Below, piece after piece: positions 5,266-52,816 of a DNA stretch of 64,000 nt (positions within the stretch are counted from its first letter, which is position 1; each line of letters begins with the position of its first letter). Source of the stretch: an uncultured Gammaproteobacteria bacterium (GTDB taxonomy: Bacteria; Pseudomonadota; Gammaproteobacteria; JAADHQ01); NCBI GenBank assembly GCA_947258655.1, contig CAMYJD010000012.1, positions 13,323-77,322 on the forward strand, given 5' to 3'. Below the pieces are notes generated by a model. That model was given only the letters and a program-made list of their open reading frames with translations, had not been told where the DNA came from and ran no database searches. Both the position numbers and the translations under genes were made by a program.

Positions 5266-6108
5266 TCACACTATCCCTTCCTTTTCCAGTTGCATTTGCA
5301 ATACCTCGATCTGGACATCCAGTTCAGTGGCATTATTTTCCATTAGCTTTTTCTGTTGTTCGGCTATGACTGTTTCAATCGTCGCCAGCACACGCCTGAA
5401 ATTTTCATCCAGTTCGCTCGATTCCATATGCTCGTGAGCGCGTGCATAACCGCTCGTGACTTGCTGTGCTCCGTCCAGATACACCTTGAGGAACTTGCGT
5501 GCACGCCTGGCATCACGCGGGTCTTCTTCGATAGTCTGCAGAATATTTCGTGTTTGTTTGACGATGCGCCGCAGCCGTTGCCTGAGTTCCTGGTTGTTGA
5601 TTCTGGCGCGCGCTTCTTCAATGCTCTGAATTTTAGTCTCCGCCTCGTCAAGCAGGTCCAGTACTTCTTCGGAGGTAATCCCGACTGCAGCAATCCCGGT
5701 GCCATCGCGCGCCGGGTCAAAACCGTAATACAGATAAAAACCGGTCAATGCGGCAATGCCGAGCAATAGACTGACAATAATGCCATTACCGATGGCCAGC
5801 CATGAGGTGATGGCGACTGCGATACCAAGCAGGATGGCGCCGAGCGTTTTATAGGGCAGGGTACTGGTACGCCGTACAATCTTGCGTTGTTTTGCCCGTG
5901 CTTCAATTGCAAAGCCCTTACGTGCAAGGGTTGCCGCGATCATGGCCAGGATAAATCCCGCGCCACTACCGGTTGCCAGTGTCAGGTTATCATTCAATAA
6001 TCCCCGTAATGCGGCCAGTAACAACGGGAAGGGCAGGATATACAGCAGGATACCGCGCAGCTGGTAGCGTGACGGTTTGATGCTGTCCGGTTTGTAGCGC
6101 CTGGCCAT
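5266..6108 (-). CDS. XpaC-like membrane protein (N-terminal TM helices, C-terminal TelA-related helical domain)
   Basis: 280 aa; four predicted TM helices followed by a coiled-coil region containing ARKFLKVYLDGAQQV. Confidence 0.45.
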   Translation of the reverse strand: MARRYKPDSIKPSRYQLRGILLYILPFPLLLAALRGLLNDNLTLATGSGAGFILAMIAATLARKGFAIEARAKQRKIVRRTSTLPYKTLGAILLGIAVAITSWLAIGNGIIVSLLLGIAALTGFYLYYGFDPARDGTGIAAVGITSEEVLDLLDEAETKIQSIEEARARINNQELRQRLRRIVKQTRNILQTIEEDPRDARRARKFLKVYLDGAQQVTSGYARAHEHMESSELDENFRRVLATIETVIAEQQKKLMENNATELDVQIEVLQMQLEKEGIV

Positions 6109-6123
6109 GATGCTAATAATGCC

Positions 6124-6213
6124 CTAGATAGAAAACAGCGCCTGCCATGAGATCAGGCCAATGGTTGCCAGTAGCAATATCAGGCCAATGGTTTTTTTCA
6201 GCATTAGCGGCAT
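6124..6213 (-). CDS. 29-aa single-TM micro-protein at head of cassette
   Basis: rc ORF MPLMLKKTIGLILLLATIGLISWQALFSI preceded by GGGGGAG Shine-Dalgarno 5 nt upstream; not in ORF track (too short). Confidence 0.3.
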   Translation of the reverse strand: MPLMLKKTIGLILLLATIGLISWQALFSI

Positions 6214-6327
6214 ATACACTCCCCCGAATTAAATCTATTGACGATCATACTTAAAGCACAGCTATATATTAAAGATAACAAGCGTTAATTATTGTAATAA
6301 TATTACGTTGTATTGATAAGCGGCCTG

Positions 6328-8208
6328 TTATGCTGAGCGTCGCTGTTTCTTCAAATGTACAAGTAGCAACGATACCGCTGCCGGCGTCATACCCGGGATG
6401 CGGCTGGCCTGACCAATGGTCAGTGGCCGGGTCTTGTTTAATTTTTCAGTGACTTCGAAAGACAGCCCCCTGACAGTACTGTAATCCAGCGTCGCGGGAA
6501 TCCTGGTCTCTTCATGTTTGCGGTGTCTGGCGATCTCTTCCTGCTGACGATTGATATAACCGGAATACTTGATCTGGATCTCTACCTGTTCGGCAACCTT
6601 CGGGTCGGTCACCGCAGTACCTGCGCCTGGCAGGGTCATCAGTTTCTGATAGCTGACCTCGGGGCGACTGAGCAATTCGTCCAGCCTCGCCGCGCGTGTC
6701 AGGGCCTGCCCCAATACCTCGCAAACAATATCAGCAGGGACCTTTTCCGGGGCAATACTGGTACTGCGCAGGCGCTTTTTCTCGGACTCGACGGCTTGCT
6801 GTTTTTGTTCAAAGGCATCCCAGCGATGATCATCCACAAGACCGAGCTCACGACCTGTCGGTGTCAGGCGCAGATCGGCATTGTCTTCTCGCAGTAACAA
6901 ACGATACTCGGCCCGGCTCGTGAACATGCGGTAGGGTTCTGCGGTACCACGCGTAATCAGGTCATCGATCAGTACACCGATATAGGCCTGGTCGCGGCGC
7001 GGACACCAGGGTTCCTGTTCACGGGTATACTGGCAGGCATTGATACCGGCCACGAGACCCTGGGCCGCCGCCTCTTCATAGCCTGTCGTACCGTTGATCT
7101 GACCGGCAAAGAACAGGCCATCGATGAATTTCGTCTCTAGCGACGGCTTCAGGTCGCGCGGATCGAAAAAATCATATTCAATCGCATAACCCGGGCGGGT
7201 GATGTGCGCATTCTCGAATCCCTTCATCGAACGCACCAGTTCATACTGGACATCGAACGGCAGACTGGTGGAAATTCCGTTCGGATAGACCTCGTGGGTC
7301 TGCAGGCCTTCGGGCTCGACGAAGATCTGGTGCGATTGCTTGTCGGCGAAACGCACGACCTTGTCCTCGATAGAAGGGCAATAGCGCGGGCCGACACCAT
7401 CGATGACACCGGTATACATCGGCGAGCGGTCCATACCGGAACGAATGATATCGTGCGTCTGTTCATTGGTATGGGTGATGTAACAGGGAATCTGTTCGGG
7501 GTGTTCATCGGCATGCCCCATATACGAGAACACCGGCACCGGCATATCGCCCGGCTGTTCTTCCAGCACGCTGTAATCGATACTGCGCCCATCGATGCGT
7601 GGCGGTGTGCCGGTCTTCAGGCGATCGACACGGAAAGGCAGCTCACGCAGGCGCTGTGACAGCGCATTGGCTGGCGGGTCACCGGCACGTCCACCCTGAT
7701 AATGGGACAGGCCGATATGAATCAGGCCACCGAGAAATGTACCCACCGTCAACACAACCGAGCGCGCTGAAAAACGCAGGCCCATCTGTGTCACAACACC
7801 GACAACCCGGTCCTGATCGACAATCAGGTCGTCAACGGCCTGCTGGAACAGACTCAGGTTCGGCTGGTTTTCCAGCGTCTCCCTGACCGCCTGTTTATAT
7901 AACACCCGGTCTGCCTGTGCGCGCGTCGCTCGTACGGCCGGCCCCTTACGGGCATTCAATGTACGGAACTGGATGCCGCCGAGATCGGCGGCATGGGCCA
8001 TGACACCGCCCAGCGCATCCACTTCCTTGACCAGGTGACCCTTGCCTATGCCGCCAATGGCTGGATTACAGCTCATTTGGCCCAGCGTTTCGATATTATG
8101 GGTCAGCAGCAGCGTCCTGGCACCCATTCGTGCAGACGCAAGCGCCGCCTCGGTACCGGCATGACCACCACCAATCACAATGACATCGAAATCTTGCTGA
8201 TATTTCAT
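6328..8208 (-). CDS. mnmG: tRNA uridine-5-carboxymethylaminomethyl modification enzyme MnmG/GidA
   Basis: 626 aa; FAD motif [15 protein letters not shown]; full-length GidA architecture. Confidence 0.95.
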
Positions 8209-8606
8209 ATAGTTAACTATCGAGACTCAAAATGTAACTCATCCGCAGTTCGTCTGGATTCTGCAAATAATAGGTTATATCTATCAATTTTATGTTAATG
8301 ATAGAAAAGTCTGAATAAAACCAGGCGTCTGCCAGGCTTGGATACGCAAAATTGAACACTTTTTAACCAGCGCGTATTCTATGCCTTTTTGTCTTGCATG
8401 GCCAACATCACGGCAATGGTCTGAGACGCACGTAATGATGGCCAAACAGTGGTGCAATACCCCATCATTAAGGATTGTTTCTGTGTAAACAAATGCAATC
8501 ATTTACTCAATATAAAAACAATCATTTGTATAAATTCAGACGCGATCTGGCAGATTGATAGACCAGTTTCAATATTATTTGACGGTCAAGATGCCGAAAA
8601 ACCAAC

Positions 8607-8663
8607 AAAGCGGACATTCACAACTAAGAGACTGTATGGCCGGGGCCGACCCTAAACGGCCTG
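8607..8663. repeat. 57-nt intergenic repeat element, copy A (perfect 16-mer AAAGCGGACATTCACA then GGCCGG..CGACCC core)
   Basis: about 72% identical to copy B at 38328-38384, sharing a perfect 16-mer. Confidence 0.5.
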
Positions 8664-8907
8664 TCGTGGAGTGTGAAGAAAACGAACGTTTACTGTACAC
8701 GCGAAGTCCGACTGTGAACAACCAAGTTAATTTCTTCCTGTTGATACTGTAATGGCATTAAGTAAAACATTCTACACGGCTGGAACTGAACCTAAGCTGC
8801 CTGGATAGTCATACCCACAGTAAGTGCTTATCTCACTGTTTTTACTAGTATATCTACCTATCATGAGGAAAATTAGGTAAAAATCCAAAAAATATTCCTT
8901 CATTTAC

Positions 8908-8938
8908 TTGACCTGGAGTTGACTCTAGGTTGTAGGCT
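8908..8938 (+). promoter_or_regulatory. MerR-type promoter: -35 TTGACC, 19-bp spacer with dyad ACCTGGAG-N4-CTCTAGGT, -10 TAGGCT
   Basis: seen directly about 80 bp upstream of the merP-like start; a 19-bp spacer with a centred dyad is the MerR-family operator layout. Confidence 0.45.
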
Positions 8939-9015
8939 TTCTACTGCCTTAATATTAAAACTGCCCGGCTAGCCACCGATTGACTGGCTGATGAACTTAC
9001 TATGAGGAAAAAGCA

Positions 9016-9312
9016 ATGAAACGAATATTGATATTGACAGGTTTATTCCTATTGCCTTTATCACCATTTGCGGCCGATAAACAGGTTGTGGAAATTGATA
9101 TCGAAGGTATGAGTTGTAAATTCTGTGCACTTAGTGTGAAAAGGAATCTGTCCACATTACCCGGTGTAGACAAGGCGGCAGTCAGTTTTAAGGACAGGAA
9201 GGCTCATATCAAGATGGCTCCGGGTAAAAAGGCTGATGTAGCTCAGATTAACAAAAAAGTTAATGAAGCTGGTTTTAAGCCTGTGAACGTAACCGTCAGC
9301 AAGGATGATTAA
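9016..9312 (+). CDS. periplasmic heavy-metal-associated (HMA) protein, MerP-like
   Basis: 98 aa, signal peptide, GMSCKFC metal-binding motif. Confidence 0.8.
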   Translation: MKRILILTGLFLLPLSPFAADKQVVEIDIEGMSCKFCALSVKRNLSTLPGVDKAAVSFKDRKAHIKMAPGKKADVAQINKKVNEAGFKPVNVTVSKDD

Positions 9313-9336
9313 ATTCTATTTTTCTGGAGACGAGTC

Positions 9337-9621
9337 ATGAGTATCAAGATAGAAATATTTTCCTCACCTGGTTGTGGTAAGTGTGGTCATGCCAAAGAAG
9401 TTTTACGCAAACTGGCTGATGAATTAGGTGGTGATAATATCCAGTGGCGTGAAGTGAATATTCTCGATGAAATGGACCATGCCGTTGATCTGGGCGTGCT
9501 ATCTACACCATCCATTGTTGTAGATGGCAAACTAGTTTTCGCAAGCCTACCTTCAGTTAAAAACCTTCGTACCGAACTGGAACGCATGCTGGATATGAGT
9601 GATCAGGATTCAAAAACATGA
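9337..9621 (+). CDS. small thioredoxin/glutaredoxin-fold protein (CGKC active site)
   Basis: 94 aa, SPGCGKCGHAK motif; translationally coupled (ATGA overlap) to the downstream membrane protein. Confidence 0.65.
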   Translation: MSIKIEIFSSPGCGKCGHAKEVLRKLADELGGDNIQWREVNILDEMDHAVDLGVLSTPSIVVDGKLVFASLPSVKNLRTELERMLDMSDQDSKT

Positions 9622-10925
9622 TAACTTTATTACTCCTTACCGCAACACTATTGGGCCTACTGGCCTTTTTTGAACCGTGTACCATTGCGACTCACACCCT
9701 GTTTTCAGTGCGAGCACATCAATCAGAAGACAATAAAACATGTTGTCAAAGTTTGCTGTCTGTCTGGTTGGGTCGAACTGCTTTATTAGTGGGGCTGTTT
9801 ACTATAGCCGTGTTTTTTACAGAGGCTCCACAGTGGGGGCCTTACACACCCAGTATTATTCTGTCTGCTATGGCTGTACTTTACCTGGTATCACGCTTTA
9901 TCTATATCCCGGTGCCGCATCTTGAGTTTTTCAAATTATTGCCAAATGGGAGGAACTTACCTCATGGCATACAACTAGGCTTGACCTTACCCGCCTGTAC
10001 CTTACCTTTGGTTATCGTGACTGTTGGTATGGCGATTACTGTGGATTCAATAAGTATTGCCGCCATAGCTGGATTTCTTTTTGCAACACTGTTTACACTA
10101 CCTATGGTTATTGCAACATATAAAGGTGTTCATGAATATGCGAGACAACTATTGAATCGTGCAGCTGTAGGCAGTCCATATCTAACGGCCGTCCTGCTAT
10201 TCAGCACAGCACTTTACCTGTTAATTCCTGCTTTAGATATCAGCTCGGAAATGCTTAAGGAAACCTTTCAGACAGCGAGCTGGGCCGGAATCGGAATAGC
10301 ATTTTTGGCAGGCTTTGTTTTTAGCTTTAATCCAGTGTCCTTTGCTTCTATTCCCGTCATGCTGGCTTATGTTACCAAAGCACATGAGGAGCGAAGGGCT
10401 TTGTTAATGGGCGGCGCCTTTGTACTTGGGATGGTTTTTACTCATGTTGTACTGGGTGTGGCTGCCGCACTTGGAGGTGAATGGGTACAAGGTGTTATGG
10501 GGAGGCAATGGGGCATACTCCTCGGGCCTATACTGATCATCATGGGGCTGATGTGGTCAGGTGCAGTAAATATCCGCTTGCCGTGGTTTGGGGTCAAAGG
10601 CCGAAAAGTAACGGGTATTTGGGGTGCCTTTTTATTGGGAATTCCATTTTCTGTTGCTGTATGTCCCTTCTGCACACCAGCTTTACTGGTTACATTAACG
10701 GCCAGTGCAGCGATTGGTTCAGTCAGTTTTGGTTTTGCCCTATTATTTGCGTTTGCGTTAGGTCGTAGCATACCTATCATATTGGGTGCCTGGAGTATGG
10801 GTTGGTTAGAGTCATTGCAGATACTCTCCCGATATCAAAAATGGTTTGAAGTAACCGCAGGGATTGTGCTTGTTATCGCCGGCTTGTATTTACTGAATGA
10901 GTATTTCTTTTTTATTGAATATTGA
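9618..10925 (+). CDS. CcdA/DsbD-family thiol-disulfide transporter-like polytopic membrane protein
   Basis: 435 aa, at least 10 TM helices; C-terminal half resembles the DsbD transmembrane domain (CPFCTP motif) but has NPVSF where the first Cys motif is expected. Confidence 0.55.
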   Translation: MITLLLLTATLLGLLAFFEPCTIATHTLFSVRAHQSEDNKTCCQSLLSVWLGRTALLVGLFTIAVFFTEAPQWGPYTPSIILSAMAVLYLVSRFIYIPVPHLEFFKLLPNGRNLPHGIQLGLTLPACTLPLVIVTVGMAITVDSISIAAIAGFLFATLFTLPMVIATYKGVHEYARQLLNRAAVGSPYLTAVLLFSTALYLLIPALDISSEMLKETFQTASWAGIGIAFLAGFVFSFNPVSFASIPVMLAYVTKAHEERRALLMGGAFVLGMVFTHVVLGVAAALGGEWVQGVMGRQWGILLGPILIIMGLMWSGAVNIRLPWFGVKGRKVTGIWGAFLLGIPFSVAVCPFCTPALLVTLTASAAIGSVSFGFALLFAFALGRSIPIILGAWSMGWLESLQILSRYQKWFEVTAGIVLVIAGLYLLNEYFFFIEY

Positions 10926-10945
10926 TAAATGATCAAACTGGAATC

Positions 10946-11347
10946 ATGTATAAAATTGGCGAAGTAACAGAGCGCACGGGCCTATCGGCCGACACATTAC
11001 GATATTACGAAAAAATTGGGTTACTACCGAATATATCGCGTAACACATCAGGTGTGCGCTTGTATAGCGAGAAGGATCTTTCAAGGCTAAATTTCATCAA
11101 GCGAGCACAACGCATGAATTTTACGCTTGATGAAATCAAGCAGTTACTAATGATGCGTGAAGACCCACAGCATGCAAAAGACACTGTGCGCCAGTTAACA
11201 GCTAAAAAGCTTGAGGATATCGAAAACCACCTTACAGACCTATCAACTCTCAGGAATGAACTAACACTACTACTTAATTTATGCCGTGCAAGCGAAGAGG
11301 GCTGCCCCATTATTGAAGATCTGGATACCGACAAACAAAAGAAATAA
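10946..11347 (+). CDS. MerR-family metal-responsive transcriptional regulator (CueR/ZntR-like)
   Basis: MYKIGEVTERTGLSADTLRYYEKIGLL HTH; C-terminal C-x6-C (LCRASEEGCP) metal site. Confidence 0.85.
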   Translation: MYKIGEVTERTGLSADTLRYYEKIGLLPNISRNTSGVRLYSEKDLSRLNFIKRAQRMNFTLDEIKQLLMMREDPQHAKDTVRQLTAKKLEDIENHLTDLSTLRNELTLLLNLCRASEEGCPIIEDLDTDKQKK

Positions 11348-11552
11348 ATGTTATCTATTAGTTTAGACAGATAGCATTATTTGAAGATTAGGAAATGAAA
11401 TACTTACGACTGATATTATTACTTTTCTTTGTTATAGAGAGCGCATTTTTCTCGATAGTATACGCTGTAAATAAATTCCCACCTTTTGTAATGCAACTCA
11501 CAATAAGTGCAGAAAATTATGGACATAGAAAAGCCTTAATACAAATAAATAA

Positions 11553-11822
11553 GGTTTTAATGATATTGGAGAAAAGAAACTCAAGATTGCTATAGTCGCT
11601 AATGAAGACGGGATACATGCCCTATTGGAAGAGAATAAAGAAACCTCTCAACTCTTAACTAAATTAGCAAATCGAGGGGTTAAATTTAAAGCATGCCGTA
11701 TTAGTATGCGTGCCTGGAAATTAAAAGATAATCAGTTCCCGCTGGAAGTAGAATTTGTACCGGTTGGCGCACCTGAAGGTATAAAGTTACAAATGCAAGG
11801 TTATAAATATTGGCGACCATAA
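11553..11822 (+). pseudogene. possible DsrE/TusD-like small protein lacking a canonical start codon
   Basis: Open frame ..DIGEKKLKIAIVANEDGIHALL..GVKFKACRISMRAW.. looks like a YchN/DsrE-fold N-terminus. The frame has no ATG; an ATT sits where an ATG would be expected; low-GC surroundings. Confidence 0.2.
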
Positions 11823-12139
11823 TATTTGTCTGTAACCTCGAACACTAGTCTACCTTGAATGCCCGATTTTGTGATACTAAATATTAGTATGCATAAGAAA
11901 CGTACGTTAATTGTACGTTCACAATATTCGTCAATTAAATCAGTTTGTAGTCTTTCAGTGTAAAGAAACTGATGTACAGCGAAAGTATGGGAAACTTTAC
12001 CCAGCAATACTGTAATCAGATGACTGCTTTTGACCGTTCTCTGTAGTTGATTAATGGAATGTCGAACGGCTATTGATTCACCTGACCAGGCAGTCTTCAG
12101 AAGCAAGACATACAGGCGCCGGTAGCAGCCGCCCCGGGA

Positions 12140-12622
12140 TTATTCCTTGACCGGGTGCTTGGCCAGTTTACGCTGCAAGGTTCGTCGATGCATGCCAAGG
12201 CGACGCGCGGTTTGCGAGATATTGCCCTGGCACTCGTTCAACACTTTATGGATATGCTCCCATTCCAGGCGCGCAACGCTGAGTGGTTTGGCTCGTAACG
12301 GTACACTGACGTCGCCTTCATCCTTATGAAAGGCATTGATAATTTCATCGGCATCGGCGGGTTTAGTCAAGTAATGCCTTGCGCCCAGTTTTATGGCCTC
12401 AACGGCCGTGGCCACCGAGGCATAACCGGTCAGGACAACGACACGGGTATTTTCATCCAGCGCCATCAATGCCTTGACCAGCTCGAGTCCGGAATCTCTC
12501 GGCATGCGCAGATCGACAACGGCATACTCCGGTGACTCCTGCCTGGCCGCGGCAATACCTTCATTGACATTATGTGCTATGCGCACATGATAGCCGCGCT
12601 GCTGCATGGCATCGGACAGCAC
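12140..12622 (-). CDS. RegA/ActR/PrrA-like response regulator (receiver + Fis-type HTH), N-terminally truncated
   Basis: C-terminus SQTARRLGMHRRTLQRKLAK matches the RegA HTH. The ORF begins at a GTG within the receiver domain; the acidic pocket (LLxVDDD) is absent and an in-frame stop lies 14 codons upstream. Confidence 0.5.
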   Translation of the reverse strand: MLSDAMQQRGYHVRIAHNVNEGIAAARQESPEYAVVDLRMPRDSGLELVKALMALDENTRVVVLTGYASVATAVEAIKLGARHYLTKPADADEIINAFHKDEGDVSVPLRAKPLSVARLEWEHIHKVLNECQGNISQTARRLGMHRRTLQRKLAKHPVKE

Positions 12623-18714: not shown

Positions 18715-19581
18715 TTGGCTATGCAGGAATTTTGTAAAATATTGTTGATACCACTGCTGTATGCATCGGCTTTCATGCCATGGCATCTATATGCGGGAGA
18801 AGATCCATTAAAGATGGGCATATTTCCGCGCCGTAATGCCACCGCGACACTGATCTCCTTCAAGCCCCTGGCCAATTACCTTTCGCAACAGCTCGGCAGG
18901 CAAGTGGAGCTGCACACTGCAGGGGATTTTACCAGTTTCTGGAACAACGTTGCGGCGCGGGAATATGATATCGTGCACTACAACCAGTATCACTATATCA
19001 AGTCCCGCAAGGTCGGCTACAGCGCCATACTGAAGAACGAGGAATTCGGCAAGACAACCCTGAAGGGTGCAATCTATGTCAGAACAGACAGCGGCATACA
19101 ATCCCTGCAGGACCTCAAGGGCAAGACCATCATCTTCGGCGGTGATACCAAGGCCATGATTTCGTACGTGGTGCCAACGGCGATATTACGACGAGCCGGC
19201 CTTAAGCCGGGTGATTACCGGGAAAAATTCTCCAAGAACCCCCCCAATACGCTGCTATCCGTCTATTTCGGCCAGGCCGATGCTGCCGGTACTGGTGACA
19301 TCATCCTCAAGATACCTACGGTAAAAAATTCCGTCGATACGTCACAAGTAAAACTGTTGGCCGAAAGTGAACCACTGGCACACATCCTGTGGGCATTGAA
19401 GGATACTATGGATCCCGATCTGCGCAACAGGATTACAAATGCATTGCTTGCACTAAATAACTCGGCCGCAGGCAAGAAAATATTAAAGCAGGCAAAGATG
19501 ACCGGCCTGCACCAAGCCTCGGACAGTGAATATAATGCCCATAGAAAATACCTGCAGGAAGTATTTGGTGGCAACTACTAG
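18715..19581 (+). CDS. PhnD/SsuA-family periplasmic substrate-binding protein (paralogue 1)
   Basis: 288 aa, signal peptide; shares blocks such as IYVRTDSGIQSLQDLKGK with the paralogues. Confidence 0.7.
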   Translation: MAMQEFCKILLIPLLYASAFMPWHLYAGEDPLKMGIFPRRNATATLISFKPLANYLSQQLGRQVELHTAGDFTSFWNNVAAREYDIVHYNQYHYIKSRKVGYSAILKNEEFGKTTLKGAIYVRTDSGIQSLQDLKGKTIIFGGDTKAMISYVVPTAILRRAGLKPGDYREKFSKNPPNTLLSVYFGQADAAGTGDIILKIPTVKNSVDTSQVKLLAESEPLAHILWALKDTMDPDLRNRITNALLALNNSAAGKKILKQAKMTGLHQASDSEYNAHRKYLQEVFGGNY

Positions 19582-19606
19582 AAATTACAGCGAAGCGCAC
19601 AGTGCG

Positions 19607-21916
19607 ATGTCATCACGGCCTGAAAAAAAACGTCTCAGCCTCGGTACGACCTTTATTCTCGTGGTCAGCGCTGTATTGTCTGTTGCGATGGGTATTTCCA
19701 TATACGTCAATAACACGATCCAGCAGAATGTTTTTCTGGAGCAGATCACGACCAAGGGTGAGGCACTGGTCAGTTTCACCGCATTAATCAGTTCCGATGC
19801 GGTACTGGGTCACGATTTTTTGCTGTTGAATCAATATATGAAAGAAATATCACAGCAGCAGAATATCGTCTATGGTGTTATTTATGCGGCAGACGGCAGA
19901 AATCTGACCGCTTATCTGAATAATGAAAACCCTGTAGTACAGCAGCACCGGGATTCTGATTTTATCCGTACCATTAACAATATAAACTCGGACCAGCGTA
20001 TACTCACGCTGCAGCATCCGATAGAAGCGGGGGAAAAGATCGGCTCGGTCATACTCGGTATCGATACCAGCAGAACGACGCTTCTGGCCAATGCGGCCAT
20101 GAGAAACCAACTTACTCAAGGTGTGATCACTATACTGATACTGTCCTTGATTATTTATCTTATATTCCGTTCACGCACGCTACGGCCGATTACTGCACTG
20201 ATACAACATACCCGTGATGTCATGAATGGCAAGCTCGAACATAAAGCCACAATACCCAACAGCCATGAGCTCGCAGAGCTTGCCGAGTCGTTCAATCGGA
20301 TGACCGAGGTACTTGCCGCCAGTAATGCAAGCAAGGACGAGGCCATGGACATGATGAGTCGGGCCAACCTCGACCTGCAGGCAGCGACCAAGGCAAAAAG
20401 CGAATTTCTCGCTAATATGAGCCATGAAATACGTTCGCCACTGACAGCCATTATTGGTTTCGGTGAAACCATTATGAATGCCAACACGACACCGTCCGAG
20501 CGCCATGATGCCACCCAGGCGATCATTCGTAACGGCGTGCACTTGCAGGGCATTATCAGTGACATCCTCGACCTGTCCAAAATCGAGGCGCAGAAACTGG
20601 AGATCGAGTCTATCGAGGTTTCGCTATTCGATTTACTCGCCGATATCGGCAGCCTGATAGAAGTCCAGTCACGTGAACAAAGTATTGAAACCAGTATCGA
20701 TTATCGGTTTCCAATACCGGGGAAGATTTATACCGACCCGATGCGGCTGAAGCAGATCCTGATCAACTTATGCAACAACGCTATCAAGTTTACAGCCAAG
20801 GGAAGTGTTCGCCTCGAGGTGAGTTACAACAGGCTCCAGGAACAGATAAAGTTTGATATTATAGATACAGGCATTGGCCTGTCGCCCGAGCAACAACAAA
20901 AGATTTTCGATCCATTCACACAGGCCGACTCGTCCACGACGCGTCAATATGGTGGCACCGGTCTGGGCCTGCCACTATCGAGGCAATTGGCCGAGATGCT
21001 CGGTGGCGGCATTTCTGTCAGCAGTAAAACGGGGATTGGCAGCCGCTTTACCGTGTCTATCGGCGCAGGATCTGTCGCACCGGATACTCTTATAGATGTA
21101 TTACCCGGTACTAGCGAACAAAACAAACCTGTGCAGCAAACAGAACCCGCCAAATTAACAGGAGATATACTGCTGGCAGAGGATTTACCCGACAACCAGA
21201 AATTGATATCCATCTTCATACGTAATCTGGGTGCCCGGGTTACGATCGCAGAGAACGGTAAAAAGGCTGTAGAAGCCGCACTCAACAATAAATTCGACCT
21301 GATCCTGATGGATATGCAAATGCCTGTTATGGATGGTATCGAGGCGGTAAAGTATTTACGCTCGCATAACTATACAGGAGCCATTATCGCGTTGACTGCA
21401 AATGCGATGAAGGAAGACCGGGAAAGATGCATGCAGGCGGGCTGTGATGAATTTCTGACAAAACCCATTGAGCGGACAACTTTTAATGAAACATTGACTC
21501 GGTATCTACAGGATAATACTGCCAGTAATGAGGCTGACGATGTCATTGTTCCTGACATCAATGACGATTTCGGTATGCTCGACATAACCAGGTCTTTTGT
21601 CCAGCGTTTACCTGACAAGCAAGCCAGCATAAACGAGGCATTCGAAAACCGGGACTGGGCAACACTGGGCCGCCTGGTGCATGACCTCAAGGGATCGGGT
21701 GGCGGGCTTGGATATCCTGCCGTCACCGAAGCCTGTAGAGACATCGAATCAAAGCTTCGTAACAAAACTATGCATGATGCATCACGGCATGCCGATGGCC
21801 AGGAAGACCCCGAATCTACGGCCGCTATAAGAGACTCTATCGAAACATTACATTCGCTCTGTGAACGTATCATCAAGGGGTGGGATGTTACTTACAATAA
21901 AAACAATATAGCCTAG
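19607..21916 (+). CDS. hybrid sensor histidine kinase (TM-periplasmic loop-TM-HAMP-HisKA-HATPase-REC-HPt)
   Basis: start taken at MSSRPEKKRL; H-box MSHEIRSPL; receiver DLILMDMQMPVMDG; HPt HDLKGSGGGLG. Confidence 0.85.
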   Translation: MSSRPEKKRLSLGTTFILVVSAVLSVAMGISIYVNNTIQQNVFLEQITTKGEALVSFTALISSDAVLGHDFLLLNQYMKEISQQQNIVYGVIYAADGRNLTAYLNNENPVVQQHRDSDFIRTINNINSDQRILTLQHPIEAGEKIGSVILGIDTSRTTLLANAAMRNQLTQGVITILILSLIIYLIFRSRTLRPITALIQHTRDVMNGKLEHKATIPNSHELAELAESFNRMTEVLAASNASKDEAMDMMSRANLDLQAATKAKSEFLANMSHEIRSPLTAIIGFGETIMNANTTPSERHDATQAIIRNGVHLQGIISDILDLSKIEAQKLEIESIEVSLFDLLADIGSLIEVQSREQSIETSIDYRFPIPGKIYTDPMRLKQILINLCNNAIKFTAKGSVRLEVSYNRLQEQIKFDIIDTGIGLSPEQQQKIFDPFTQADSSTTRQYGGTGLGLPLSRQLAEMLGGGISVSSKTGIGSRFTVSIGAGSVAPDTLIDVLPGTSEQNKPVQQTEPAKLTGDILLAEDLPDNQKLISIFIRNLGARVTIAENGKKAVEAALNNKFDLILMDMQMPVMDGIEAVKYLRSHNYTGAIIALTANAMKEDRERCMQAGCDEFLTKPIERTTFNETLTRYLQDNTASNEADDVIVPDINDDFGMLDITRSFVQRLPDKQASINEAFENRDWATLGRLVHDLKGSGGGLGYPAVTEACRDIESKLRNKTMHDASRHADGQEDPESTAAIRDSIETLHSLCERIIKGWDVTYNKNNIA

Positions 21917-26297: not shown

Positions 26298-26321
26298 TTA
26301 TCCACTCTGCATTGTGGATAA
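26298..26321. promoter_or_regulatory. pair of DnaA boxes in rpmH-dnaA spacer (TTATCCACT, TGTGGATAA)
   Basis: read directly from sequence; dnaA autoregulatory region and possible origin. Confidence 0.6.
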
Positions 26322-26393
26322 CTTTGAAAAATAGAGTTAGAATCCGAGGATAACGAAGTTATTAACAACCTCTCCAACAAGAAGGGAGCCCTC

Positions 26394-27719: not shown

Positions 27720-27940
27720 TGTGGATAACTTGTTTATATAAATTAGAATTAAAGATATTCAATTGTTATCCACAGTTTAGTAACAAATAGTAAAGCGGTT
27801 TTACATTCGTTATACATAATTAAAACCGATATAAGATATTGTTTTATATGATAAAAATAGTTTTATTAACAAAAGGCGTGTTTGTTAATAATTACAATAA
27901 CAAAGATATATTTATTTATATTAATAAATAGGGAAATCGG
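27720..27940. promoter_or_regulatory. AT-rich dnaA-dnaN spacer with inverted DnaA boxes (TGTGGATAA near 27719, TTATCCACA near 27765) - candidate oriC/DUE
   Basis: boxes seen in sequence; about 220 bp of very low GC between them and dnaN. Confidence 0.5.
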
Positions 27941-34250: not shown

Positions 34251-34345
34251 TTTAATGCCTCACAGATAGTGAGTATGAAGATCTCTTTTATAGGATTTTA
34301 TTCTGAAAACAAAGAGCTCTGCTATTAATTTTCAATTATTACACC

Positions 34346-34732
34346 ATGGTAGAGCGGTTTAACTCAAAGATTGAGGATACTGTGATTACACTGAAGTCCA
34401 TAATTGATTGGTTTAAAGGGAATAAATATGAATTATTGCCAATAGACTTTGATGTGAAAAGGCTCGATGATGATAATTCATTCCAGATAGAGATACACAA
34501 TGACGAGAAAACCGAAATGAAATTTGTTGTTATTGTGTTGGAAAAATATTTAGGATTATCGAAAAAAGATGCAATTAATATAATGTTAGAGATCCATACG
34601 AAGGGAAAAACTATAATTACGGGCTATGATAAAAATACAGCCAACAGGCTGGTGAGTCATATTGAATCTATGGCAAAAATAAATAGTTTCCCTCTTGTGT
34701 GTAATGTACAAAAGACATATCAAGATATTTAA
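34346..34732 (+). CDS. ClpS-like adaptor-domain protein with about 45-aa N-terminal extension
   Basis: EIHNDEKTEMKFVVIVLEKYLGLSKKDAINIMLEIHTKGKTIITGY..FPLVCNVQK parallels the ClpS core; low-GC islet. Confidence 0.55.
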   Translation: MVERFNSKIEDTVITLKSIIDWFKGNKYELLPIDFDVKRLDDDNSFQIEIHNDEKTEMKFVVIVLEKYLGLSKKDAINIMLEIHTKGKTIITGYDKNTANRLVSHIESMAKINSFPLVCNVQKTYQDI

Positions 34733-35019
34733 GCTGTCAAATTGTTGATCACCCGGAAACCAGAATCACGATATTGAAGTTAGTTTCTGACTATTTAAAA
34801 TGGCTGCTTGATCCGGAACATGCTTCCGACAACGACAGCAGTAGTCAAAATCAGGACAGACTTAGGCAAGTTATGTATTTTGGATAAATATTGAGATTTT
34901 TTCCAGGCCGCTGACAGATATTAGTCAAGGCAGAATACTAAAGTTCTGTGCTGCCTTGCCGCCATACTATGTGGGCATATATTAAGCATATGTTAAATAC
35001 AAGCTATTTGGTGTGAATT

Positions 35020-35898
35020 ATGTATCATGGCACAAGACAATGTAGCAGATTTTTATCAATTATCGCGGTGTTACTATTGTCTGGCCTGTCAACACAGAGC
35101 GCTTTTTCATCAAATGATAGCATCAAGATGGCTATTATTTCGCTGGCGCCACCTGCCAAAATTTATAGACAATGGCAGGAGTTTGCAGATTACCTGTCTA
35201 GTAAAACAGGCCGGGAAGTAAAAATTATTGTTCCACGAGGCTTCAAGAAAATAAAATCGGCGGTTGAGGATAAGACAGTCGATATTTTTTATGTCAATTC
35301 GCATATATTCTACAAGTTAACAGAGGCACAAAAGGCCGAACCACTTGCACAGATGATGAATCTGGATGGCAGCATATACAGTAATAGTGTTATGTTTGTG
35401 CGCAAGGACAGCGGAATTGATTCCTTACAACAACTCAAGGGTGAAAAAATTGCGTTTGTTGCTCCGATGGGTGCGGGTGGTTATCTTGCACCAAGGGCAG
35501 CATTCTATGACGCCGGAATACAAACAAAAGTAGATACTGAAGAGAAATTCACCAAAAACCTGACTTCATCTGTCCATAAGGTATTACTGGGAGATGTCAA
35601 AGCGGGCACAATGTGTGGCCTGAACTACAAATTAATGAGTGAACGCATCAAGACGGGCGACCTGAAAATCATTGCATCGAGTGCTGACTATCCTGAAAAT
35701 GTATTTGGTATTCGTGCGGATTTGCCAGCAGCATTAAAAAAGCAGATCTCTGAAGTCATGATTGGTATGGATAAGGATATAAACGGCAGAAAGATTCTTG
35801 ACGGAATGAAGGGCATGAAAATAAAGAAATTCGTAAAATATGATCCTGAAACAGAACACACTACCAGAGCATTGCGTAAAAGCGCAGATTTCAAATAA
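35020..35898 (+). CDS. PhnD/SsuA-family periplasmic substrate-binding protein (paralogue 2)
   Basis: 292 aa, signal peptide; VRKDSGIDSLQQLKGEKIAF. Confidence 0.7.
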   Translation: MYHGTRQCSRFLSIIAVLLLSGLSTQSAFSSNDSIKMAIISLAPPAKIYRQWQEFADYLSSKTGREVKIIVPRGFKKIKSAVEDKTVDIFYVNSHIFYKLTEAQKAEPLAQMMNLDGSIYSNSVMFVRKDSGIDSLQQLKGEKIAFVAPMGAGGYLAPRAAFYDAGIQTKVDTEEKFTKNLTSSVHKVLLGDVKAGTMCGLNYKLMSERIKTGDLKIIASSADYPENVFGIRADLPAALKKQISEVMIGMDKDINGRKILDGMKGMKIKKFVKYDPETEHTTRALRKSADFK

Positions 35899-36025
35899 AT
35901 AAAGTTTGTAGACATCGAGATCCTGTGGGTTTGAATGAATTAATTATTATACTTGATATACGCAGTAGCGGTATTGTCACGTAAATTTATAATTTTCACT
36001 GCTAACTCATATTAAAGACTTTTCA

Positions 36026-38254
36026 ATGAGACTTAGCCTGAATACACGTATGGTCATCAGCCTGTTAGCACTCGTGCTAACGGGCTTTATTGTGCTTGCC
36101 ATTGTATTACTGACTAATGCGAAATCGCGTATCGATCAGTTTCTGGAAACCCAGGCCGTCTACCAGGTACAAACCCTGGCTCAGGCCAGCCTCGATGGCC
36201 TGGTATCAGAAGATTATGAATTACTTGAGAGTTGGGTAAACTCATCGATCCCTTCCGATAATTATGCCTATGCAGCCCTGGTAAGATCCAATGGTCAGGT
36301 TATGTCGCATACTGATCCTAATTATATAGGGAAAAATATTACAACAATAACAGGTGTTAGTAAGCATGTGTCGCGCATATCGGAATATCAACAGCGACCG
36401 GTCAAGGAAATAATTAGCCCGGCAAAGATTGGTGGACAAGTTCTGGCAAATGCCCATGTGGCCTATTACATGGACGCTGGAGAATTTATTAACAGAGATA
36501 CAGCCGTTGAGATACTGATTATTCTTACGGTCATTTTTACTGTTATTCTGATCGCTGGTTATATGCTTATGCGAGGTATAACCGGACCGATAGAAATATT
36601 ACGCCAGATTATTTCAAAGTCGTCACTTGATAAATCAGTCAACATTGACCAGAAAATAATTAATCGTGCGGATGAAGTCGGTGATCTTGCACGTGCGTTC
36701 GAGGATACTTCAGAAAGATTGGTCCATTAACCAATAAGGCGATAGTCGAGACATCCAATGATGGCATTATTGTTATTAATGAAAAAGGGATTGTTGAATC
36801 AATTAACTCTGCCGCAGAAAATATTTTTGGTTATACGCCTGCAGAAGTAGTTGGGCATAATGTATCCATGCTGATGCCGGAACCCTATGCACATGAACAT
36901 GACGGTTATATAGAAAAATATCATCAAACCGGTAAAGCATCGATTATAGGTAAAAGAAGAGAGCTTGCAGCTAAACGCAAGGACGGAAAAATTATACCTA
37001 TTGAACTGGGTATCGGTGAAATAGTATATGAAGGAAAGGCGCGTTATGCAGGGACTGTGCGTGATATTACAGATCGTAAGGAGTATGAGAATGCCCTTGT
37101 TGAAGCGAGGGATGCATCAGATAGAGGAAACCGTACAAAAACACGATTCCTGGCCACAATGAGTCATGAATTACGAACCCCCATGAACGCAATTATGGGT
37201 GCAATGGGGCTGTTGAAAGATGTGGATATACCAGAAGAGGAGAAGAATTTCCTGGTATGTGCTGAAAAAGCTGCGGGTGAGTTGCTTGAGCTAATAGATA
37301 ATGTCCTTGACTTTACCGATCTTGAATCTGGTAGTGTAGCGCTGGATTTAAGTGGTTTTAATCTACTGGAAATGCTGGAGACGATTCATACGAAATATAA
37401 CGATGTATTGGCCGATATGCCGGTCAGTCTGGATCTGGAAATTGCAGACGGCATACCCGATTTATTAATCGGTGATTTTCGACGTATTAATAATGTCCTG
37501 GAAAAACTCGTTCAAAATGCCATCAAATTCACTTCTGAAGGCAGCATTGTATTACGTGTCATAACGGAAGGCATGTCGAATAACAAGATAAATCTGAAAT
37601 TCGAGGTATGTGATACAGGCATAGGAATAGACGAGCAGGATCAACAAAGCATATTCGACAGTTTTACCCAGGCAGATGATTCATACACCAGACGCTTCGG
37701 TGGAACAGGTATCGGGCTTAGTATATGCAAGGCGTTGGTTCAGGTAATGGGGGGCGAGATTGGTGTTGAATCCGAAGCGGAAAAAGGCAGCAGGTTCTGG
37801 TTTACTCTTTCACTGGATGTAATAAATATGCAAGCGCCTGCAAATACAAAAGCAGCGGAGCCAGTTGTCGAAATAGACAGGCCAGGTCAAAGTGCCCGAC
37901 TGCTGGTTGTCGAGGATGACATCAGTAATCAACGCATAGTTCAGGCCATGCTGAACAGGCTGGGATTTTATTCGGATATCGCCGAAAATGGCAGAGTTGC
38001 GCTGCAAAAACTTGAACAGTCTGACTATGATCTCATATTAATGGATTGCCAAATGCCGGTCATGGATGGATTGGAAGCGACCAGGAAAATCAGACAATTA
38101 GAAACAAACAGGGAGCATATACCAATCATTGCTGTCACTGCGAACTCGATGGAGGGTGACAAGGAAAAATGCCTTGAGGCCGGTATGGATGACTATGTCA
38201 GTAAACCCATTGATATGCAATGTCAGTAAACCCATTGATATGCAATTACTCAAA
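36026..38254 (+). pseudogene. hybrid sensor kinase (TM-loop-TM-HAMP-PAS-HisKA-HATPase-REC) disrupted by a frameshift near 36720-36735 and a 25-bp tandem duplication at its 3' end
   Basis: ORFs 36026-36730 and 36868-38229 are continuous in protein space after a -1 shift. The PAS segment TNKAIVETSNDGIIVINEKG.. begins in the other frame. Removing the duplicated 25-mer restores ..KPIDMQLLKTAIVDWLK*. Confidence 0.65.
38197..38246. repeat. perfect 25-bp tandem duplication GTCAGTAAACCCATTGATATGCAAT x2
   Basis: read directly from sequence. Confidence 0.85.
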
Positions 38255-38327
38255 ACCGCTATAGTAGACTGGTTAAAATAAACACTAGCTGCTATGCAAT
38301 CAAACCATTATTGTGACTAAAACGAAA

Positions 38328-38384
38328 AAAGCGGACATTCACAGCAACGGATCTGACAGGCCGGAGTCGACCCAAAGCAGGCGG
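38328..38384. repeat. 57-nt intergenic repeat element, copy B
   Basis: perfect 16-mer AAAGCGGACATTCACA plus GGCCGGAGTCGACCC core; see copy A. Confidence 0.5.
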
Positions 38385-38410
38385 ATAAGCATAGCGCCAT
38401 CCCCAATGTC

Positions 38411-38430
38411 ATTCCCGCGCAGGCGGGAAT
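38411..38430. repeat. hairpin ATTCCCGC-GCAG-GCGGGAAT (8-bp stem)
   Basis: perfect inverted repeat 27 nt after repeat copy B; resembles ATTCCC-N8-GGGAAT type small repeats. Confidence 0.4.
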
Positions 38431-38861
38431 CCAGAAAGGACTAAGAATGGAAAGGATACCATACGCAATTATTTAGCGACAACGATCGTCGTTGCCTGGG
38501 GAAGGAAATCTAAAAGAGTTTTTACTCTGACCCCAAATGTTCCAAATGTTCCCAGGTTTTTGCGCCGCGGCGATCTGTTAACGTGTATAGATCAGCTATA
38601 AAGAATATTGATCTGGATGCGAGACTCAACAGATTGTTTCACTGCGACCGCTTTGTATCCCCAAACGCATGGCCTGTTAGTTCGCAATGACAATGCTTAT
38701 GAAAGGACGCTTCAGACCGGTTTCTGCCTGTTAAACAAATATTCCTGAAAGACCGCTATAGGGTGTATGAGACCTTCATCTCCAGACAATATTGTCTGGA
38801 CAAGTGTTAATCTATTTTGCAATGTGTCAGGTTGGGTCTGAGCTACTACAGCTAATTGTTA

Positions 38862-41803: not shown

Positions 41804-42850
41804 TCAATAGAGGTATACCGCACCAGCAGCAGTGGCTGCATTATCTCCCTGACCGGGCGTAGTGTTGTTCACTCCAGTCGCTGCACTGTCTTCAAATTGT
41901 ACACTGACAGCAAGCGTGTCGCCGTCACGACTCAATGCAGGGATACCAAAGGAATCATCCGCGTCCGTATTGGAAGCCTTCACGTAGGCCTGTTGTGTCC
42001 AGGTCGAAACGGATCGGGTAAATACATAAACGCCACCTGCACTACTTGCAGAGTTGTCTACCTGGCCGGGTGAGGTGTTATTGATCCCAGTCGCCGCACT
42101 GTCTTCACTCATTGCGCCCACCGCCAGCGTATTACCATCACCGCTCAATACAGGAAGACTAAAGGAATCACCAGCACCTGTGTTGGAAGCCTTCACGTAG
42201 GCCTGTTGTGTCCAGGTTGTGTCTGATCGCGTGTACACATAAACAGCACCTGCATCGAGGGCTGAATTATCACCCTGACCCGGTACGGTGTTGTTCACGC
42301 CGGTCGCCGCACTGTCTTCAAAATATGCCCCCACAGCCAGCGTATTGCCGTCTCCACTCAATGTAACCGAAATACCAAAGTTATCGTTAGCTTCAGTATT
42401 GGAGGCCTTTATATAGCCTGTAGCTGCGATACTGTCTATTAGTGCAAGGGTCTGGTTGTTTGAACCAACACATGTGGTCGCCGCTGCATCACAGGCTTCC
42501 ACAATATATTGTGCGGAAACCCAGTCTGTTTTGTGTACAGGTATGACCAGGCTATGACTTGTAGCAGTGATATTGCTGGCGCTTGGGATTACCGTGAAAC
42601 CCGATGCGCCATCGGGATTCTCTAGAATTCTATAGTGGTCCGCACCTGCAACCGCAGGCCATGTAAACCTGATTTGCTTCAAGTCGAATGTCAGTGTCGG
42701 CACGGGCGCACTCAGGCCCGTTGCCGGGGTACTGCTTCCGCCAGAGCAGCCTGAAAGTAGAGATGACAGCACCATGAAGAAAAAAAGGCAAATCAAATAA
42801 AAGATATGTGTCCTATGGTCAGAAATACAGAGCTTGCTGTGTATAGTCAT
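41804..42850 (-). CDS. lipoprotein with three tandem FG-GAP/beta-propeller-like repeats
   Basis: LLSGCSGG lipobox. Three copies of about 70 aa YxKASNT..D.FG..LSGDGNTLAVGA..EDSAATGxNNTxPGQxDN..AGxVYV. The same repeats are visible as about 220-bp DNA repeats (for example GCCTTCACGTAGGCCTGTTGTGTCCAGGT twice). Confidence 0.6.
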   Translation of the reverse strand: MTIHSKLCISDHRTHIFYLICLFFFMVLSSLLSGCSGGSSTPATGLSAPVPTLTFDLKQIRFTWPAVAGADHYRILENPDGASGFTVIPSASNITATSHSLVIPVHKTDWVSAQYIVEACDAAATTCVGSNNQTLALIDSIAATGYIKASNTEANDNFGISVTLSGDGNTLAVGAYFEDSAATGVNNTVPGQGDNSALDAGAVYVYTRSDTTWTQQAYVKASNTGAGDSFSLPVLSGDGNTLAVGAMSEDSAATGINNTSPGQVDNSASSAGGVYVFTRSVSTWTQQAYVKASNTDADDSFGIPALSRDGDTLAVSVQFEDSAATGVNNTTPGQGDNAATAAGAVYLY

Positions 42851-51791: not shown

Positions 51792-52814
51792 ATGATTATG
51801 TTTAATCGATACCTTACACGCATCAATTGCGTGCTGATGTGTTGTGGCTGCCTGTTTATGTCTGGTTGCGATGAGCAACAGCAAACAACTTCCACGACCG
51901 GACCGTCTTTGACAACGGTAAAGATTGCCGTGTCTACAACACCATTGTCGGCTCCGTTTTATGTAGCACAGGCCAATGGCTATTTTACCGAGCAAGGCCT
52001 GAATGTGGCATTCGTTGATACCATTGGCGGTAACCGTTGTCTGCAAAAAGTGTTGGACGCCGAGGTCGACATGGGCACTGCATCTGATTACCCGGTGATG
52101 ATAAAGAGTTTTGCACACAAGGATTTTACCATCGCGGCGACCTTCGTCAGTTCGGTGAATGATGTAAAACTCATTGCCAGTAAAAAAAATGGTATTAATG
52201 AGCCTGCGGAGCTAAAAAATAAAATAATAGGTACGGTTACCGGCGCATCGAGTCATTATTTTCTCGACCGCTTTCTGCTGCTCAATAATATGAGTCTGGC
52301 CGATGTCAATGTGATTCATGTCGATCCGGAAGCCCAGCCAGCCGCGCTTGCCAACGGAGATGTGGATGCGCTGTCGGTATGGGAACCCTATGCCTATCTG
52401 GCGAAAAATGCCCTGCAGCATGACAGTGTTATTTTTTCATCGGGCGAGTATTATCGCGAAACATTCAATCTGGTCATGAACAAGGATTATATTAAAAACA
52501 ATGCCGATACGGTCAGAAAAGTCCTGCTGGGATTGGCCAGTGCTATTGAATTTATCAAGCAGCAGCCTGACAAGGCACAACAACTGCTGGTTAAAAGACT
52601 CAAGCTGGATAACGCCTTCATCGACTGGATATGGGATGATTATGATTTTGCATTAACGCTCGATCAGTCGCTGCTGAATACACTGGAGAATGAAGCCAGG
52701 TGGGCATTGCAGCATGGTATCGTCAACAATGGTACGGCAGTCAATTATCTTGATTATGTTGATACCGGCATACTCAAGGATATTGGTGGCGCCAGGATAA
52801 CTATTATCCAGTAA
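51792..52814 (+). CDS. SsuA/NMT1/PhnD-like periplasmic substrate-binding lipoprotein (paralogue 3)
   Basis: 340 aa; lipobox LFMSGC. Confidence 0.65.
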   Translation: MIMFNRYLTRINCVLMCCGCLFMSGCDEQQQTTSTTGPSLTTVKIAVSTTPLSAPFYVAQANGYFTEQGLNVAFVDTIGGNRCLQKVLDAEVDMGTASDYPVMIKSFAHKDFTIAATFVSSVNDVKLIASKKNGINEPAELKNKIIGTVTGASSHYFLDRFLLLNNMSLADVNVIHVDPEAQPAALANGDVDALSVWEPYAYLAKNALQHDSVIFSSGEYYRETFNLVMNKDYIKNNADTVRKVLLGLASAIEFIKQQPDKAQQLLVKRLKLDNAFIDWIWDDYDFALTLDQSLLNTLENEARWALQHGIVNNGTAVNYLDYVDTGILKDIGGARITIIQ

Positions 52815-52816
52815 AC

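Follow-up and report, generated by a model that had tools for sequence, protein, structure and literature searches.

A diverged 58-nt intergenic repeat in two strain-specific blocks beside the origin gene cluster of an uncultured gammaproteobacterium

The origin region and its two strain-specific blocks

The whole stretch of DNA analysed here (64 kb; hereafter the window) comes from around the replication origin of a gammaproteobacterial chromosome, with mnmG and the mnmE-yidC-rnpA genes on one side and dnaA-dnaN-recF-gyrB on the other (Table 1). Perfect DnaA boxes stand next to dnaA, the dnaA-dnaN spacer is very AT-rich (DnaA-box regions 26300-26325 and 27720-27940), and the cumulative GC skew reaches its minimum at 26-27 kb. 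Based on these three features, this is the probable replication origin. The nearest homologues of MnmG, at 87-93% identity, come from metagenomes and metagenome-assembled genomes, and named taxa appear only at ~77%; judged by this protein, the host belongs to an uncultured lineage.

Two blocks of the window beside the origin cluster have no counterpart in any retrievable relative, and each contains, in non-coding DNA, one copy of a short repeat (copies A and B). GC content is 0.41 in both blocks, compared to 0.48 in the core between them and 0.50 in the repeat itself, which supports and sharpens a preliminary description of the two sites as lying at the edge of low-GC, accessory-looking DNA. 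Decaying genes are found in the regions of both blocks: a kinase gene that is both split and frameshifted, a response regulator gene that has been truncated, and a fragment of a DsrE gene. Apart from copies A and B themselves, the four block edges have no sequence in common.

Table 1. Coordinates of the repeat copies, their blocks and the landmarks of the window
Feature	Position	Strand	Remarks
mnmG	6328-8208	-	left part of window, with rsmG (gidB)
Strain-specific block 1	8416-12110 (right limit approximate)		GC 0.41; in order: 183 nt AT-rich spacer, copy A, HMA / thioredoxin-like / CcdA-DsbD-like / MerR operon, DsrE-like gene fragment
Repeat copy A	8598-8655	+	58 nt, GC 0.50; exact core AAAGCGGACATTCACA at 8607-8622; second conserved block GGCCGGGGCCGACCCTAA at 8638-8655
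Weak inverted partial core match AAATCGGGCATTCAAG	11856-11873	-	12/16; near right end of block 1; nhmmer E = 25, not significant
mnmE, yidC, yidD, rnpA		-	
Perfect DnaA boxes	26313, 27720, 27766		next to dnaA
dnaA	26394-27719	+	
dnaN, recF, gyrB		+	
Strain-specific block 2	34254-38842		GC 0.41; in order: ClpS-like gene, PhnD-like binding protein, broken HAMP/hybrid histidine kinase, copy B, 466 nt non-coding DNA with REP-like palindromes
Repeat copy B	38319-38376	+	58 nt, GC 0.50; exact core at 38328-38343; second block GGCCGGAGTCGACCCAAA at 38359-38376
REP-like imperfect palindrome GGCGGATAAGCATAGCGCCATCC	38380-38402		directly 3' of copy B; 21/21 match in a Salmonella enterica record
dRS3/NIME-like palindrome GTCATTCCCGCGCAGGCGGGAATCCAG	38408-38440		3' of copy B; sole ATTCCC-N8-GGGAAT site in window
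Weak inverted full-length profile match	38706-38759	-	~50% identity; 330 nt right of copy B; nhmmer E = 9.6, not significant

Copy A is located within the 807-nt divergent spacer between mnmG and the HMA operon, about 185 nt inside the left homology breakpoint of block 1. In six contigs from relatives (L035, L036, L097, L098, L125 and L126), homology to the window ends at 8411-8415; beyond this point gene content differs per lineage (a MacAB-like transporter, a 1235-aa PAS-GGDEF protein or yjdM), and homology is regained no earlier than ~12.14-14.4 kb, where the truncated response regulator and beta-CASP genes lie. The ~65 nt just upstream of mnmG (8346-8411) are conserved in the same six contigs. 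The response regulator of the window (12140-12622) is truncated at its N-terminus and has no partner kinase of the kind found in L036 and L125. The HMA operon has its own MerR-type promoter at ~8908-8938 (TTGACC, a 19-nt spacer containing the dyad CTGGAGT..ACTCTAG, and TAGGCT), and copy A is therefore not needed as a promoter there. At the other end of block 1, in its lowest-GC part, the DsrE/DsrF-like gene fragment (11625-11822) retains only the C-terminal half of the domain, which is further evidence that the block is decaying. Plasmid homologues of the CcdA-like protein beside copy A reach at most 58% identity over half its length.

Copy B begins 38 nt past the natural stop (38281) of the frameshifted hybrid histidine kinase gene. 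It lies between two convergent 3' ends, the second being that of the alpha-amylase gene ~480 nt away, and about 460 nt inside the right homology breakpoint of block 2. A glycosyltransferase gene and the alpha-amylase gene are adjacent in seven contigs of three related lineages (L039-L045), with spacers of 7-340 nt, and block 2 in its entirety therefore has no counterpart in those contigs. In the closest relative, L039, the spacer between these two genes, which is the counterpart of the block 2 site, is occupied by a 238-nt MITE-like element (2472-2709 of that contig) with 18-nt terminal inverted repeats (CACCACGAAGACACGAAG, 94% complementary). This site therefore accepts small mobile DNA.

The kinase gene beside copy B is broken in two ways. 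Its hybrid kinase portion (36868-38229) is detached from the HAMP-containing N-terminal part (36026-36730), and an exact 25-nt tandem duplication (ATGTCAGTAAACCCATTGATATGCA twice, at 38195-38244) frameshifts the end of the receiver domain; the gene may be either a pseudogene or an assembly artefact. The window contains three paralogous two-gene modules (18715-21916, 35020-38281 and 51792-54733), each pairing a PhnD-like periplasmic binding protein with a hybrid kinase of HAMP, HisKA, HATPase and receiver domains, and the middle one is the broken module inside block 2. The kinase beside copy B has no homologue above 47% identity, so that the donor lineage is unsampled and donor tracing fails by this route.

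Two palindromes stand immediately 3' of copy B, together spanning 38380-38440. Neither is part of the repeat, and both occur in multiple copies in other bacteria. Perfect matches of 27-31 nt to the dRS3/NIME-like palindrome number 17-18 per Neisseria gonorrhoeae record and at least 40 in a Photobacterium record; Cupriavidus, Aeromonas and Azospirillum have the palindrome too. The palindromes accompany copy B only; copy A has no REP-like neighbour. When both regions were compared by BLAST to plasmids and phages, the only matches were to the REP-like palindromes.

Similarity of the two copies and the search for further ones

In the best ungapped alignment of copies A and B, 44 of the 58 positions are identical (76%). 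Over the slightly shifted interval 8607-8663 / 38328-38384 the count is 41/57 (72%), and the positions, the 16/16 core and the ~72% identity of the repeat first reported there are thereby confirmed. The core AAAGCGGACATTCACA occurs exactly twice in the window, both times on the plus strand. A second block starting with GGCCGG, also described previously, is present in both copies, but the gap that had been placed in it disappears in the ungapped alignment: it reads GGCCGG(G/A)G(C/T)CGACCC(T/A)AA, with T/A rather than T/- at the final variable position. Conservation is block-wise, with 23/25 identities in a 25-nt block (AAAAC.AA.AAAGCGGACATTCACA), 6/15 in a 15-nt spacer and 15/18 in the 18-nt block GGCCGG.G.CGACCC.AA. 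Similarity between the copies stops sharply at ~58 nt.

The 16-mer core alone proves nothing, because about one shared exact 16-mer is expected by chance in 64 kb (4^-16 over ~4e9 position pairs), and this expectation is what speaks for a chance resemblance of the two copies. The full 58-nt pair is another matter. Scored ungapped at +1/-1, it reaches 30, compared to a best self-match of 19.0 on average (sd 1.3, maximum 23) in 60 second-order Markov simulations of the whole window, and a Karlin-Altschul estimate gives E ~1e-5 to 1e-6. This comparison speaks against chance similarity, to which we give a negligible probability. Copies A and B therefore share ancestry, and their homology is real. 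The pair is the top-scoring non-coding repeat in the window; higher scores come only from paralogous coding repeats. Among coding repeats in the window, an FG-GAP repeat protein gene (41804-42850, minus strand) contains three tandem 213-nt units at 41814-42363 with 68-77% identity.

The pattern of differences between the copies can be read in two ways. At 76% identity an identical run of 16 bases is unexceptional (permutation p = 0.08), which is compatible with neutral decay of the repeat. The mismatches are also slightly more clustered, in triplet-sized blocks, than random placement would give (p = 0.026), and this clustering could reflect block-wise constraint rather than neutral decay.

We find no third copy on either strand of the window using an nhmmer profile built from the two copies, and no further core when up to three mismatches to AAAGCGGACATTCACA are allowed or when a profile is searched. 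There is likewise no copy in 193 kb of DNA from relatives. Just these two copies, with no conservation in relatives, was the situation that the preliminary description took to count against its proposals, and it is the situation found within the 64-kb window and these 193 kb. No real homologue emerged from anchored exact-pattern scans that covered 596 Gb of species-representative genomes, JGI metagenome contigs and IMG/VR. The pattern GCGGACATTCACAN{13,17}GGCCGG gave 34 matches in genome contigs other than those of the source genome, 51 in JGI metagenomes and 2 in IMG/VR; a strict 29-base pattern gave none in metagenomes; and in IMG/VR there were 15 matches to the 16-mer alone and 11 to the block-2 pattern. 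These counts are near chance expectation, and the matches are spread over unrelated phyla, fall mostly in coding DNA and show no similarity beyond the seeded bases. Two slightly better-looking matches (L023 and L087) failed on inspection. Since all pattern matches are chance-like, a dispersed family is not demonstrated by these scans, which demand 16-29 exactly conserved bases and would overlook any member at the level of divergence seen between copies A and B. A full-text literature search for a 13-mer of the repeat recovered unrelated human primer sequences only.

Two copies and no more in 64 kb also fit another origin, a one-off ectopic duplication. Under this explanation, the genome would hold no copies besides A and B; the two blocks would derive from a single donor segment, or a short patch would have been copied by illegitimate recombination or gene conversion, with neutral divergence since. 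The absence of any copy from the relatives and the public collections scanned, the equal GC content of the blocks and a divergence compatible with neutral decay are all in its favour. Against it, the blocks and their edges have nothing else in common, 58 nt alone is an odd remainder for a shared donor segment, and 24% divergence implies that the event is old. We consider a one-off duplication possible but unlikely.

RNA, binding-site, attachment and mobile-element signals

We searched the two loci for signs of a function or a mobility mechanism. Rfam 15 gave no match anywhere in the window at the gathering score, and permissive scans (E <=10) of both intergenic regions returned only noise at E >=0.9, none of it overlapping both copies; the covariance-model search that the preliminary description had put forward as a check is thus negative at either threshold. 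No sigma-70-like promoter or intrinsic terminator is present at copy A or copy B. Single-sequence folding energies are no better than those of shuffled sequences (z-scores -1.35 to +0.13), and the consensus fold of the alignment is weak (-6 to -9.5 kcal/mol, few pairs). Read on the minus strand, both copies retain the potential for a 5-bp hairpin in the second block (GGUCG-loop-CGGCC), with both substitutions in the loop and a T-rich stretch after it. Beyond this 5-bp stem the 58-nt unit has no internal dyad and is hence not a palindrome of the REP, BIME or dRS3 type. The small-RNA gene proposed earlier for this repeat is accordingly left with no Rfam match, no promoter or terminator consensus and no shared fold at the copies.

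Neither copy contains a DnaA box, defined as a 9-mer with at most one mismatch to TTATCCACA; the sequence ACATTCACA is two positions off this consensus. The 7-10-mers of the core and of the second block occur in the window at about their expected frequency, without over-representation, and the Neisseria DNA uptake sequence (DUS) is absent from the window. The consensus sequences of CRP, sigma-54, sigma-28, the ends of Tn3, Tn7 and Tn402, and dif show no fit by eye; these comparisons are leads rather than tests.

A functional cis element, in the form of a two-box protein site (boxes of 25 and 18 nt separated by the variable 15-nt spacer), or a short minus-strand RNA would account for the block-wise conservation, the clustering of mismatches and the small minus-strand hairpin kept in both copies with its T-rich stretch. 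The negative RNA results above stand against it, as do the contexts of the copies, which disagree: copy A is upstream of an operon with its own promoter, and copy B is between convergent 3' ends. In addition, relatives lack the element, and none of its sub-motifs is over-represented. We therefore regard a present function of this type as rather improbable.

The repeat is also not coding. The only frame open in copy A is plus frame 2; in copy B this frame lacks a start codon and is closed just upstream by a stop at 38314-38316. The minus-frame peptides of copies A and B have only ~19 residues in common. No synonymous differences occur in the 10 identical codons. The small ORFs at 8449-8655 and 8555-8752 have no Pfam match. 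An origin of copy B as a remnant of the kinase C-terminus was considered and rejected: the copy lies beyond the natural stop, and a blastx comparison to the paralogous kinases of the window aligned only 18 aa, with E = 0.14.

Neither block has a second core at its opposite end. Among the ORFs scanned with Pfam at the two blocks and next to them, none has an integrase, recombinase or transposase domain, and the window contains no tRNA or tmRNA. An integron attC site can be set aside, with no dyad, no integrase domain and, on direct reading, no GTTRRRY core at the element ends. No inverted repeat involves the element within 250 nt, and the two inverted matches that we did find, one near the right end of block 1 and the other to the right of copy B, are not significant and serve as leads only (Table 1). 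The third earlier suggestion, the terminus of a miniature mobile element, thus lacks a significant inverted partner as well as further copies in the window and in the 193 kb from relatives.

An attachment or recombination site had also been suggested by the preliminary description; at such an att-like site, a recombinase acting in trans would have captured or exchanged the adjacent foreign DNA by way of the identical 16-bp core. In favour of such a site, the flanking similarity is weaker than that of the 16/16 core, each copy is near one block edge, and the copies have the same orientation. Nevertheless, there is a single copy per block with no second core at the opposite edge, no integrase or recombinase domain among the scanned block ORFs and no tRNA, and similarity extends to both sides of the core. 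The copies are also off the mapped junctions by the distances given above. Finally, the 29.7 kb between the copies are core chromosome and not an island, because mnmE, yidC, rnpA, dnaA, dnaN, recF, gyrB, the DnaA boxes and the GC-skew minimum are all inside; an island bounded by copies A and B is rejected on this ground. The suggestion gains no support from these observations. We rate an att-like site as improbable, though slightly less so than a functional cis element or RNA.

Origin of the repeat

Known repeat systems offer three comparisons. The first is with mosaic intergenic elements. Neisseria intergenic mosaic elements (NIMEs) are built of RS units, 50-150 bp long, with dRS3 inverted repeats of 20 bp on either side; other mosaic repeats include the non-palindromic linker motifs of enterobacterial BIMEs and the modules of pneumococcal BOX elements. 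Like these, the repeat is a short non-coding, non-palindromic intergenic unit of about 60 nt, and copy B is directly beside a dRS3-like palindrome (ATTCCCGCGCAGGCGGGAAT) and a REP-like palindrome. Unlike these families, which have tens to hundreds of copies, the repeat is seen in two, and copy A has no palindromic neighbour. It has no sequence similarity to NIME, BIME or BOX elements, there is no DUS, and the host is an uncultured gammaproteobacterium rather than a Neisseria.

The second comparison is with the attL and attR sites of integrative islands and prophages, to which the repeat is alike in having an identical 16-bp core as direct repeats near the edges of strain-specific DNA. It differs in its one copy per block, its similarity beyond the core, the origin core between the copies and the lack of an integrase or tRNA target. 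The third is with solo ends of MITEs or insertion sequences. Here the size is fitting, the spacer accepts small insertions and one end is more conserved; the differences are that an inverted partner is not seen at a significant level, that two copies do not fix the ends well enough to define a target-site duplication, and that neither a transposase nor further copies were found. As no defining feature of a named family is established, we file the repeat only as a short intergenic repeat in acquired DNA.

Based on these data, we tentatively favour an explanation in which copies A and B are relic fragments of a short dispersed intergenic repeat private to one lineage, or of the end of a mobile DNA; they would have arrived together with acquired DNA and now be functionless. 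The two copies would be diverged remains of a single non-coding, non-palindromic unit of ~58-65 nt, belonging to horizontally acquired or rapidly replaced DNA and not to the conserved chromosome. In mosaic intergenic elements, REP-like palindromes are accompanied by non-palindromic modules, and this unit may have been one of that kind. Its arrival could date to the acquisition of the two lower-GC blocks beside the origin cluster, either as part of the incoming DNA or as a deposit made in the process, and the repeat would now be decaying with no function of its own. Both the mobile or dispersed origin and the present neutrality of the repeat are what we infer from the evidence.

Supporting a relic of this kind are the sharp 58-nt limits of the repeat, the palindromes beside copy B and the MITE-like element in the L039 spacer; the absence of both blocks from relatives, their GC content of 0.41 versus 0.48 and their decaying genes point the same way. 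On the other side, only two copies are visible in the 64-kb window and the 193 kb from relatives, copy A is without a REP-like neighbour, there is no transposase, integrase or significant inverted partner, and the mismatches cluster.

One further explanation would give the repeat a more active role, as a private landing-pad signal. The repeat would then be a two-box site for a recombinase or nucleoid protein encoded elsewhere in the genome, marking the positions to the left and right of the origin cluster at which foreign DNA is taken in or swapped. A signal of this sort would explain why the copies have the same orientation and an outer-side position in blocks that bracket the origin core. 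We consider it very unlikely.

On present evidence the repeat itself matters little. Its value is that of a marker, indicating that the two origin-flanking blocks are recent, decaying acquisitions that have something in common, and, given the complete genome or genomes of the same species, it could serve as a probe for the source of the two blocks. Its weight would grow only if further copies revealed a signal belonging to a new recombination system or small mobile element.

The loci themselves resemble minimal mobile elements, a concept described for Neisseria, and other replacement hotspots, in that both vary in content from relative to relative between conserved flanking genes. The likeness has a limit: the minimal mobile element concept concerns loci and not a 58-nt repeat, and it needs no specific sequence signal, none of which is shown here. 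Variable content is also seen on the other side of mnmG, where a block of DUF4178, DUF350 and spermine-synthase-like genes lies between mnmG and a Halogen_Hydrol gene in L035 (11881-16262) and L036 and is absent from the window (6108-6328), L097 and L098.
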